Source of the DNA: a virus
Length of the DNA stretch: 64,000 nt
Virus record (IMG/VR): IMGVR_UViG_3300045988_051365
Direction: 5' to 3' (one strand)
Positions 63,341 through 63,412 of this stretch are shown here, piece by piece. The notes under the pieces are model-generated. The model made no database searches. It was not told the origin of the DNA and saw nothing but the letters and a program-made list of their open reading frames with translations. The translations under genes and the position numbers were made by a program. Within the stretch, counting starts at the first letter, position 1. The number at the start of each line of letters is the position of its first letter.

Positions 63341-63412
63341 TGCCCCATGTTGGACTCGAACCAACGCCATACAAGTTTAGAATTTGCTCTTCTACCACTG
63401 AAGTAATGGGGC
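63341..63412 (-). tRNA. Candidate amber suppressor tRNA (anticodon CTA, reads UAG)
   Basis: Canonical 72-nt cloverleaf. Acceptor GCCCCAT/ATGGGGC, D stem CTTC/GAAG, anticodon arm GCAAA-TTCTAAA-CTTGT with U33 and A37, T arm GTTGG-TTCGAGT-CCAAC. Confidence 0.6.

Follow-up and report, generated by a model that had tools for sequence, protein, structure and literature searches.

The question raised by this locus is why a phage would carry a tRNA gene with the anticodon CUA, expected to read the amber codon UAG, and whether any gene of the phage itself calls for such reading. The gene lies near one end of the 64,000-nt stretch of DNA that was analysed (IMG/VR record IMGVR_UViG_3300045988_051365), hereafter the window. 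The original prediction was that TAG is recoded as sense in late or structural genes located outside the window, i.e., that the phage reads these genes under code 15 with the help of this tRNA.

A CUA tRNA and its neighbourhood

The gene (Table 1), hereafter tRNA(CUA), is called by ARAGORN on the minus strand at 63340–63412 with the anticodon cta, the same as originally proposed, and is labelled 'Pyl' by convention. Rfam RF00005 matches precisely the interval given in Table 1 over the full model with 62.7 bits (gathering score 29; E = 3e-11 for the window), the sixth-highest covariance score among the 22 Rfam tRNA matches in the window. Folded by eye, the sequence forms a standard type-I cloverleaf, which from the 5' end comprises the acceptor strand GCCCCAU, the dinucleotide UA, the D arm CUUC-AGUGGUA-GAAG (4-bp stem, 7-nt D loop with GG), a single A, the anticodon arm GCAAA-UUCUAAA-CUUGU, the 5-nt variable loop AUGGC, the T arm GUUGG-UUCGAGU-CCAAC (5-bp stem), the second acceptor strand AUGGGGC, which completes a 7-bp stem, and the discriminator A73. 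The anticodon loop consists of 7 nt, with U33, C34-U35-A36 and A37-A38, and all tertiary partners are there, namely U8-A14, G15:C48, G18-G19, the C13-G22-G46 triple, T54-A58 and G53-T54-T55-C56. ARAGORN, Rfam and the direct reading of the sequence thus agree on the clean 72-nt cloverleaf with CUA at positions 34–36, U33 and A37 that had been described. The A31-C39 pair, also pointed out before, is a real mismatch, the other four pairs of the anticodon stem being G-U, C-G, A-U and A-U, and the 7-nt loop UUCUAAA is confirmed. The minimum free energy (MFE) fold (RNAfold, -22.6 kcal/mol, z = -2.1) departs from the cloverleaf, with other pairing in place of the D and anticodon arms; the cloverleaf is at -20.3 kcal/mol, i.e., 2.3 kcal/mol above the MFE. 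We conclude that tRNA(CUA) is a real, canonical tRNA and that, judging from its nucleotides, it is a functional-looking tRNA of the amber-suppressor type, which would read UAG.

Table 1. Positions in the window of the CUA tRNA, its neighbours and the genes for tRNA maturation or repair
Feature	Coordinates	Strand	Evidence
tRNA, anticodon CUA (amber-suppressor type), 72 nt	63341..63412	-	ARAGORN, Rfam RF00005, direct sequence reading
tRNA(CAT), initiator-like, GGG/CCC anticodon stem	63267..63338	-	ARAGORN, Rfam
tRNA block, part inside the window, about 24 tRNAs amid small ORFs	36887..63412	-	ARAGORN, Rfam
105-aa ORF just upstream of tRNA(CUA), ending in TAG 38 nt before the tRNA	63450..63767	-	ORF calls
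PolyA_pol-family nucleotidyltransferase, candidate CCA-adding enzyme	4838..5614	-	PF01743, identical gene in L007
Polynucleotide kinase-phosphatase (PNKP), tRNA repair type	3517..4443	-	PF13671, PF25109 HAD_PNKP
RNA ligase, tRNA repair type	6584..7972	-	phrog_968 RNA ligase, E 8e-41

That the gene encodes a pyrrolysine tRNA, as the ARAGORN label would have it, is practically out of the question, given that this label is applied to every CUA anticodon, that in tRNA-Pyl the variable loop has 3 nt, the small D loop lacks GG and the anticodon stem has 6 bp, where the present molecule is built as an ordinary type-I tRNA (variable loop of 5 nt, 7-nt D loop with GG, anticodon stem of five positions and normal T loop), and that there are no pyl genes among the annotated proteins (a scanned subset of the proteome).

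Several features bear on the amino acid that tRNA(CUA) would carry. The short variable arm excludes the architecture of bacterial Tyr, Leu and Ser tRNAs. The closest paralogue in the phage, tRNA-Arg(TCT), with 64% identity, is not informative, and in GenBank phages tRNA(CUA) alone resembles Arg, Lys and Asn tRNAs, weakly and in the generic way of tRNAs. Among the matches listed, at least 120 cellular tRNAs have the same acceptor stem together with A73, and they are ambiguous: at least 75 are Glu(CTC), at least 24 Thr, at least 12 Arg, at least 6 Lys and at least 3 Glu(TTC), with no Bacteroidota tRNA among them. The combination of A73 with G1-C72 is unlike that of the Gln and Trp tRNAs of Escherichia coli, but is compatible with Lys. 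GlnRS and LysRS are notorious for accepting CUA suppressors and, by analogy, Gln or Lys would be the likeliest residue.

Two nucleotides downstream of tRNA(CUA) lies tRNA(CAT), whose initiator-like character, noted in the original prediction, is borne out by its anticodon stem and by the published tRNAscan tables for related genomes, in which this neighbour is called fMet. This gene is highly polymorphic between strains, with three very different alleles, two of which (alleles 2 and 3) are not recognized by ARAGORN, and a deletion variant; apart from the T arm, the CUCAUAA loop and the ends of the acceptor stem, the alleles have little in common. The two tRNAs belong to a block of about 29 genes, of which tRNA(CUA) is the fifth, i.e., near the start, and which shares its strand with the genes for replication and nucleotide metabolism. 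ARAGORN finds 24 tRNA genes in the window, all on the minus strand apart from one plus-strand call that is an antisense artefact, and the block continues for about 7.4 kb past the end of the window with Gly, Tyr, an odd CAA tRNA and Arg(GCG). In the strain of the window, tRNA-Pro is split by an 803-nt insert with a PDDEXK_5 ORF; no ribozyme or group I intron was found around the tRNAs with Rfam at a permissive threshold. Comparison of the 3' ends shows that none of the phage tRNAs, tRNA(CUA) included, encodes CCA. Read-through of the TAG of the 105-aa ORF upstream would add 5 codons, followed by TAA. A megablast search of the tRNA region against GenBank phages gave no match, and the tRNA pair matched in blastn via tRNA-Met only.

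To assess the conservation of tRNA(CUA), IMG/VR was searched with its sequence, the anticodon being entered as NNN, which recovered 19 contigs; together with six loci anchored by proteins, these provide 25 copies, all of which have CTA and are identical in all 72 nt. None of the 40 fetched loci that span the site lacks the gene or has a TTA or TCA suppressor, and with the window added, all 41 copies of the gene are identical. In 20 distinct flank haplotypes, whose anchoring made no use of the tRNA sequence, the 72 nt show 0 differences, whereas the upstream and downstream flanks vary at tens to hundreds of positions, with up to several hundred departures from the consensus in the 700 nt on each side. 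The invariance of tRNA(CUA) within a mosaic, hypervariable stretch suggests that it has a present function. The observation of an invariant island in such a variable stretch is, to a modest extent, new.

A genome in the standard code

The prediction that TAG is recoded concerned genes beyond the window and called for the complete genome, which was assembled as a composite of related contigs from IMG/VR, ENA metagenomes and Logan, with 95–100% identity in the overlaps; the last 10 kb were closed with GenBank MT835470.1, an unannotated partial record of 117 kb with a terminase that is 99.9% identical. The result is a circle of 182,344 bp with 36.79% GC and 29 tRNAs, and independent human-gut contigs of 182.5–183.9 kb from many samples were linked to the window by exact protein matches. 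An early arc of about 100 kb, on the plus strand when the circle is written in early-gene orientation, encompasses the tRNA block, the replication genes, PolA, ThyX and NAPRTase, and is broken near its start by a 12-gene cluster on the opposite strand. All real genes of the window are on the minus strand and densely packed under code 11; they encode, among others, NrdD, Dda-like and DnaB-like helicases, DNA ligase, the RNA ligase and PNKP of Table 1, the PolyA_pol-family nucleotidyltransferase, dUTPase and HNH endonucleases. The late arc, of about 76 kb, is on the other strand, convergent with the early arc. It starts with the large terminase (TerL; 758 aa, phrog_6681, E 3e-69) and the portal protein (733 aa, phrog_6547), which are followed by a series of tail fibres (Phage_fiber_rpt, Peptidase_S74), about 20 genes of structural size and then giant ORFs of, in this order, 1148, about 1590, 570, 1554, 610, about 2967, about 3254, 804 and about 1525 aa. 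PHROG scans of many late proteins were mostly without match, the giant ORFs having no PHROG family beyond one weak match to 'virion structural protein', and a GTDB scan with one late protein gave no match either. Introns, inteins or homing-endonuclease insertions, which are frequent in zeta crAss-like phages, occur here too: besides the insert in tRNA-Pro, there are the HNH endonucleases and, in one strain, a LAGLIDADG ORF around which TerL is split.

Genes of the closed genome were called with a simple greedy caller under three codes. The standard code (code 11) gives 236 genes with a coding density of 93.0%, code 15 (TAG as sense) 237 genes with 93.5%, and code 4 (TGA as sense) 233 genes with 92.6%. 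The eight largest ORFs are the same under all three codes, and the ORFs that change between codes 11 and 15 shift by a few codons at one end. The single exception is a pair of ORFs of 164 and 180 aa separated by TAG (the in-frame extension after the TAG amounts to 184 codons), which was considered as a case of programmed read-through and rejected: five codons past the TAG there is an ATG that belongs to the second ORF, and the stop is kept in 56 of the 56 loci that span it, diverged ones included. The two ORFs, which have similar N-termini, are adjacent genes with separate starts.

The idea that TAG is sense in late, structural or lysis genes and is decoded there by tRNA(CUA) has in its favour the position of the tRNA in an early-strand tRNA block, as in truly recoded crAss-like relatives, and is otherwise opposed by the complete genome. 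The ORFs of the 182-kb circle are not fragmented under code 11, the late genes, including TerL, portal, tail fibres, a stretch of 10 kb of tail/baseplate size and the giant ORFs, are all complete, and in the reference genome, no conserved sense position of a structural or lysis gene is occupied by an in-frame TAG. The published tables for the relatives discussed below give code 11 and 'no suppression' (PMC7886860; PMC12386605). Re-calling the genes under code 15 brings no gain in ORF continuity genome-wide, so that, on its own terms, the prediction fails; we regard recoding as highly improbable and conclude that the whole genome uses the standard code. No release factor 2, aminoacyl-tRNA synthetase or modulator of release factor 1 was found among the roughly 45 of about 236 proteins scanned and the precomputed Pfam matches. 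For annotation, this means that tRNA(CUA) is no signal to re-call the genome under code 15.

Stop-codon usage is skewed all the same. Genome-wide, 160 of the 236 genes end in TAA, 53 in TGA and 23 in TAG, which makes TAG the rarest stop; the two TAG stops of the window that had been listed before, at 8000 and 22927, are both real, although they are just two among about 13 TAG-terminated ORFs there. Of the 42 late-arc genes with 70 aa or more, 38 stop at TAA, 4 at TGA and none at TAG, which is also missing from the 12 genes of the opposite-strand cluster, compared with TAG stops in 19 of the 162 early and middle genes. The difference in TAG use between late and early/middle genes has p = 0.03 in the Fisher test, with one 45-aa late ORF ending in TAG counted; when TAG is set against TGA only, p = 0.26. 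The late-gene absence of TAG is therefore a general preference for TAA, which is usual in highly expressed genes, rather than a TAG-specific effect, and the tracing of TAG avoidance to this preference is another modestly new point. The next in-frame stop follows at a median of 8 codons after TAG, 5 after TAA and 4 after TGA, and after TAG-ended genes it is again TAG in 8 of 23 cases. Thus, back-up stops are not enriched after the 23 TAG-terminated genes, and a strong suppressor would also lengthen about 10% of the phage proteins.

Relationship to zeta crAss-like phages

In a tblastn search with TerL, leaving aside the record of the same phage and one unannotated contig, the best annotated matches are TerL proteins of crAss-like phages (about 30% identity, E 2e-55) and of other Bacteroidota phages. 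Yutin et al. (2021; PMC7886860, Suppl. Data 1) list seven circular 'zeta_9' genomes of 176.7–186.4 kb, all given as 'c11' and all with the suppressor anticodon CTA; four are assigned to Bacteroides xylanisolvens, among them the three that are closest in size to the present genome. Similarly, 'clade 8' of the 2025 paper on Zeta crAss-like phages (PMC12386605) consists of 12 genomes of 156–188 kb, 11 of which, of 164–188 kb, carry the CTA tRNA; this clade has polA, 35.4–36.9% GC and a Bacteroides host, and the CTA suppressor is stated to occur with no suppression. The composite matches these groups in size (182.3 kb compared with the published 172–188 kb), GC content (36.8%), polA (PF00476 here), the number of tRNAs (about 28–29) and code 11, and it lies inside the ranges that define them, i.e., 145–192 kb, about 35–37% GC and a family-A DNA polymerase. 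The order of its tRNAs is that of OAWA01000024, OJPU01000022, OGTB01000008 and other zeta_9 genomes, Sup-CTA included; the split tRNA-Pro of the window's strain aside, there is no substantive difference. Zeta crAss-like phages are further characterized by a transcription block with giant RNA polymerase-like proteins (DxDxD motif); the late arc of the present genome has a run of giant ORFs (3261, 2970, 1611, 1554 and 1530 aa), whose single PHROG match is the weak one given above.

The proposed kinship to crAss-like gut phages therefore agrees with size, GC content, polA and tRNA order, and the match to published genomes means that the case is already known. Gene order and genome statistics, rather than phylogeny, identify the phage as a standard-code crAss-like phage of the zeta_9/clade 8 group, with Bacteroides as the predicted host and a putatively virulent way of life. 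The combination of a CUA tRNA with the standard code is a documented feature in a documented lineage, and the present case joins a small documented set of Bacteroides phages, abundant in the gut, in which an amber suppressor is kept but does not serve to decode the phage's own genes.

Several known systems resemble this one in part. Gut phages in which TAG is recoded (code 15), among them crAss-like and Lak phages (Borges et al.; Yutin et al.; Peters et al., 2022), likewise have a CUA tRNA in an early region that is in the standard code, low GC and TAG as the rarest stop; unlike the present phage, which has none, they contain numerous in-frame TAGs, located in late, structural and lysis genes, and code 11 breaks up their ORFs. 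The Zeta crAss-like phages Lera/ctE7s22 (PMC12386605) also have a CTA suppressor that is seemingly unused for amber decoding. However, Lera has a TCA suppressor too, together with real TGA-to-Trp recoding, and its TAG stops reportedly have another stop directly after them, which is not the pattern described above for the present genome. The amber suppressors of E. coli, supE, supF and su7, share the CUA anticodon in an otherwise normal tRNA, A37-A38 and competition with release factor 1, but are single-base mutants of identifiable parents, whereas tRNA(CUA) has no close phage paralogue and no identifiable cellular parent.

Possible roles of an amber-suppressor-type tRNA that no phage ORF needs

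No phage ORF needs tRNA(CUA), and the roles suggested in the literature for such tRNAs are sabotage of the host, a buffer against nonsense mutations and a first step towards a change of the code. Whereas the anatomy of tRNA(CUA), its conservation and the lack of recoding are shown, the sabotage and buffer roles are inferences. We favour the first of these, with a probability of roughly 40%: tRNA(CUA) would act in trans, causing read-through of UAG in host genes, to which the TAA-terminated late genes of the phage would be immune. The idea was proposed by Yutin et al. (2021; PMC7886860) and in the 2025 Zeta paper, which favours host sabotage or anti-defence over incipient recoding (PMC12386605). 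Under this hypothesis, tRNA(CUA) would be transcribed with the tRNA block and freed by processing of the RNase P/RNase Z type, which we infer from the mere 2 nt that separate it from the next tRNA. The CCA end would be added by a host enzyme or by the PolyA_pol-family enzyme of the phage, and a host aminoacyl-tRNA synthetase would charge the tRNA, which could then compete with release factor 1 at UAG. Given that the phage genes contain no in-frame UAG, its targets could only be UAG terminators. Read-through of UAG-ended host genes would damage host proteins, defence proteins included, and the heavily expressed late genes of the phage, with their TAA or, in a few cases, TGA stops, would remain untouched.

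This predicted role is consistent with the canonical structure combined with a standard code genome-wide, and with the invariance of tRNA(CUA) amid variable flanks and beside a neighbour with three alleles. A36-A37-A38 is the usual context in tRNAs for U-starting codons and fits as well. Furthermore, two diverged genera of the clade keep the same arrangement without in-frame TAGs (PMC12386605), which suggests a present function rather than a transient state. The avoidance of TAG in late genes (0 of 42, compared with 19 of 162 early and middle genes) points in the same direction, albeit without specificity, as TAG is not significantly rarer there relative to TGA. The weak anticodon stem, with four pairs, one of them G-U, and the A31/C39 mismatch, speaks against host read-through, as do the MFE fold and the TAG-ended early genes of the phage itself, which lack protective back-up stops.

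A compound of sabotage and buffering is possible, if tentative: tRNA(CUA) might be kept by selection as a weapon against the UAG terminators of the host or of rival phages and, at the same time, might already buffer amber mutations in the late genes of the phage, with Tyr-to-TAG changes as the first step of recoding. The evidence on such changes comes from a comparison of strains that covered about 770,000 codon cells in 235 loci, in which single-base variants with identical flanks were considered clean. There are five clean nonsense variants, 4 TAG, 1 TAA and 0 TGA, with 34% TAG expected from mutational opportunity (binomial p = 0.047). Two of them replace a conserved Tyr codon by TAG in late genes that are intact in every other respect. 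The first affects codon 212 of a 589-aa fibre-like protein in strain L259, a position that is TAT in 14 other strains and Tyr in distant homologues; the second, in contig 045053, affects codon 618 of the 1554-aa protein, after which about 930 codons are intact. Two further candidates were rejected, namely an in-frame TAG in PolA (L039), which falls in a short region with compensating gaps, and a 'codon 1113 TAG' in the 1554-aa gene, an alignment artefact.

The same variants are pertinent to a latent or incipient change of the code, a doubtful explanation that we rank second and according to which the suppressor precedes recoding and, at present, buffers amber mutations, with in-frame TAGs to come later. 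The nonsense-buffer model comes from Borges et al., whose preprint includes standard-code relatives with acquired suppressors, i.e., the step before recoding, and an 'incipient code change' was raised by Yutin et al. (PMC7886860). The low GC content (36.8%), the rarity of TAG (23 of 236 stops), the clean nonsense variants and the two Tyr-to-TAG cases are all compatible with such a process; should the code indeed be changing, these rare natural variants would be its first visible step. However, the numbers are tiny, and with looser filters the excess disappears (8 TAG among 16 nonsense events, p = 0.13). In addition, two of the four clean TAG events, along with the TAA event, fall in a single gene for an HNH/endonuclease VII-like protein that is evidently dispensable. 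Contig 045053 is presumably identical to ERZ779982 NODE_6 (both are 151,160 bp long), from an assembly with a coverage of 2.7x, and the coverage of L259 is not known, so that sequencing error is a live explanation for the Tyr-to-TAG variants. Accordingly, the existence of natural amber variants, the third modestly new observation, is a hint, the variants being too few and too poorly covered to serve as evidence. There is also no fixed in-frame TAG anywhere, and the diverged genera have kept the tRNA without a build-up of TAG (PMC12386605).

Finally, tRNA(CUA) could be a tRNA-shaped gene without a decoding role, such as a paralogue in decay, an element that serves the processing or spacing of the neighbouring tRNAs, or a decoy for tRNA-targeting nucleases of the host. 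The mismatched anticodon stem, the MFE fold and the fact that no phage codon requires tRNA(CUA) would all suit such an element, and the set of tRNA-repair genes (RNA ligase, PNKP and nucleotidyltransferase) suggests a conflict over tRNAs. We nevertheless consider this option unlikely, given the covariance score, the intact tertiary nucleotides and the complete invariance within a hypervariable neighbourhood. In particular, CUA is kept in every copy and across the clade, which argues against a mere structural element, as the latter would not need this anticodon.

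Split and variable tRNA genes

The tRNA-Pro(UGG) gene of the window's strain is interrupted in its anticodon loop, at the 37/38 or 38/39 junction (the position is ambiguous by 1 nt), and the joined exons form a normal 73-nt tRNA. This split gene is not called by ARAGORN, and Rfam at E<=1 yielded no group I intron. The insert encodes a PDDEXK_5 protein whose exact sequence occurs in 195 indexed blocks of the assembly collection. At the same site in other strains (e.g., the related contig L014), there is an unsplit tRNA-Pro of different sequence.

The tRNA(CAT) gene adjoining the amber suppressor tRNA also varies: near-identical phage strains carry three very different alleles as well as a 5-nt deletion variant. 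What these alleles share is limited to a T arm, the acceptor ends and the anticodon loop CUCAUAA; in alleles 2 and 3 the D region is oversized, and ARAGORN does not recognise either of them as a tRNA. Published tables for related genomes give 'Sup,fMet,Ile' in some cases and 'Sup,Ile' in others.

Several other tRNA calls require comment. The tRNA with anticodon CAA is entered as 'Undet' in the table of Yutin et al. (PMC7886860). In the related contig L001, it is a 75-nt type-I molecule with a short variable arm. Bacterial tRNA-Leu is of type II. The plus-strand 'tRNA-Arg(tcg)' is probably a false positive, a mirror image of the minus-strand tRNA-Ser(gct) that it overlaps. Conversely, one tRNA detected by Rfam was missed by ARAGORN in the window; its counterpart in other strains is identified by the latter program as tRNA-Asn(gtt).

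Coordinates of tRNA and RNA repair features (window positions unless a contig is named)
Feature	Position	Strand	Remarks
Split tRNA-Pro(UGG) gene	62117-62992	-	5' exon 62992-62955, 3' exon 62151-62117
Insert in tRNA-Pro(UGG)	62954-62152	-	803 nt
PDDEXK_5 ORF inside the insert	62168-62932	-	254 aa
tRNA(CAT) beside the suppressor	63267-63338	-	same site in contigs L097, L098, L103 and others
tRNA with anticodon CAA	L001:7367-7441	+	ARAGORN 'Leu'; ~2 kb past the window's high end
'tRNA-Arg(tcg)' call	55365-55441	+	ARAGORN
tRNA	61172-61240	-	Rfam, 38 bits
PNKP	3517-4443	-	
PolyA_pol-family nucleotidyltransferase	4838-5614	-	
RNA ligase	6584-7972	-	

RNA repair genes

The genes for PNKP, a PolyA_pol-family nucleotidyltransferase and an RNA ligase are clustered within 3517-7972 on the minus strand. 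Together with the near-complete tRNA set, these three resemble a kit for repairing and maturing tRNAs, which may serve to counter host anticodon nucleases.

Variation among strains in protein-coding genes

In a single contig, a 589-aa fibre-like late gene carries a natural TAT(Tyr)->TAG variant (L259:2986-2988). Separately, 22 short contigs, representing 55 member sequences of P0001, a protein of 211 aa, stop at most 1 base from this codon, as at the ends of L257, L258 and L260. These shared ends point to a recurrent assembly break, which would reflect polymorphism within a sample or else a boundary of recombination in the fibre gene.

The large terminase of one strain is represented by 196-aa and 584-aa ORFs flanking a 281-aa LAGLIDADG endonuclease ORF (L257:3381-6654), and that of other strains by a single 758-aa ORF (L258:4378-6654 compared), a pattern that suggests an intron or intein present in some strains but not in others. 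Comparison of L130:12989-16401 (-) with the same region of L193 reveals a single 1039-aa ORF in one strain and two ORFs in separate frames, of 752 and 390 aa, in the other, which indicates that an early-strand gene without an assigned function is polymorphic for an indel or frameshift.

The late arc, outside the window, encodes a row of giant ORFs of ~3260, 2970, 1610, 1554 and 1530 aa (contigs L085, L111 and L153), essentially without PHROG matches, which may represent the virion RNA polymerase/transcription block of crAss-type phages. Strains differ extremely in the region around the 1590-1611-aa ORF and the ORF upstream of it, which is hypervariable: against MT835470.1, a partial record of the same phage, it either shows 83% identity or does not align.
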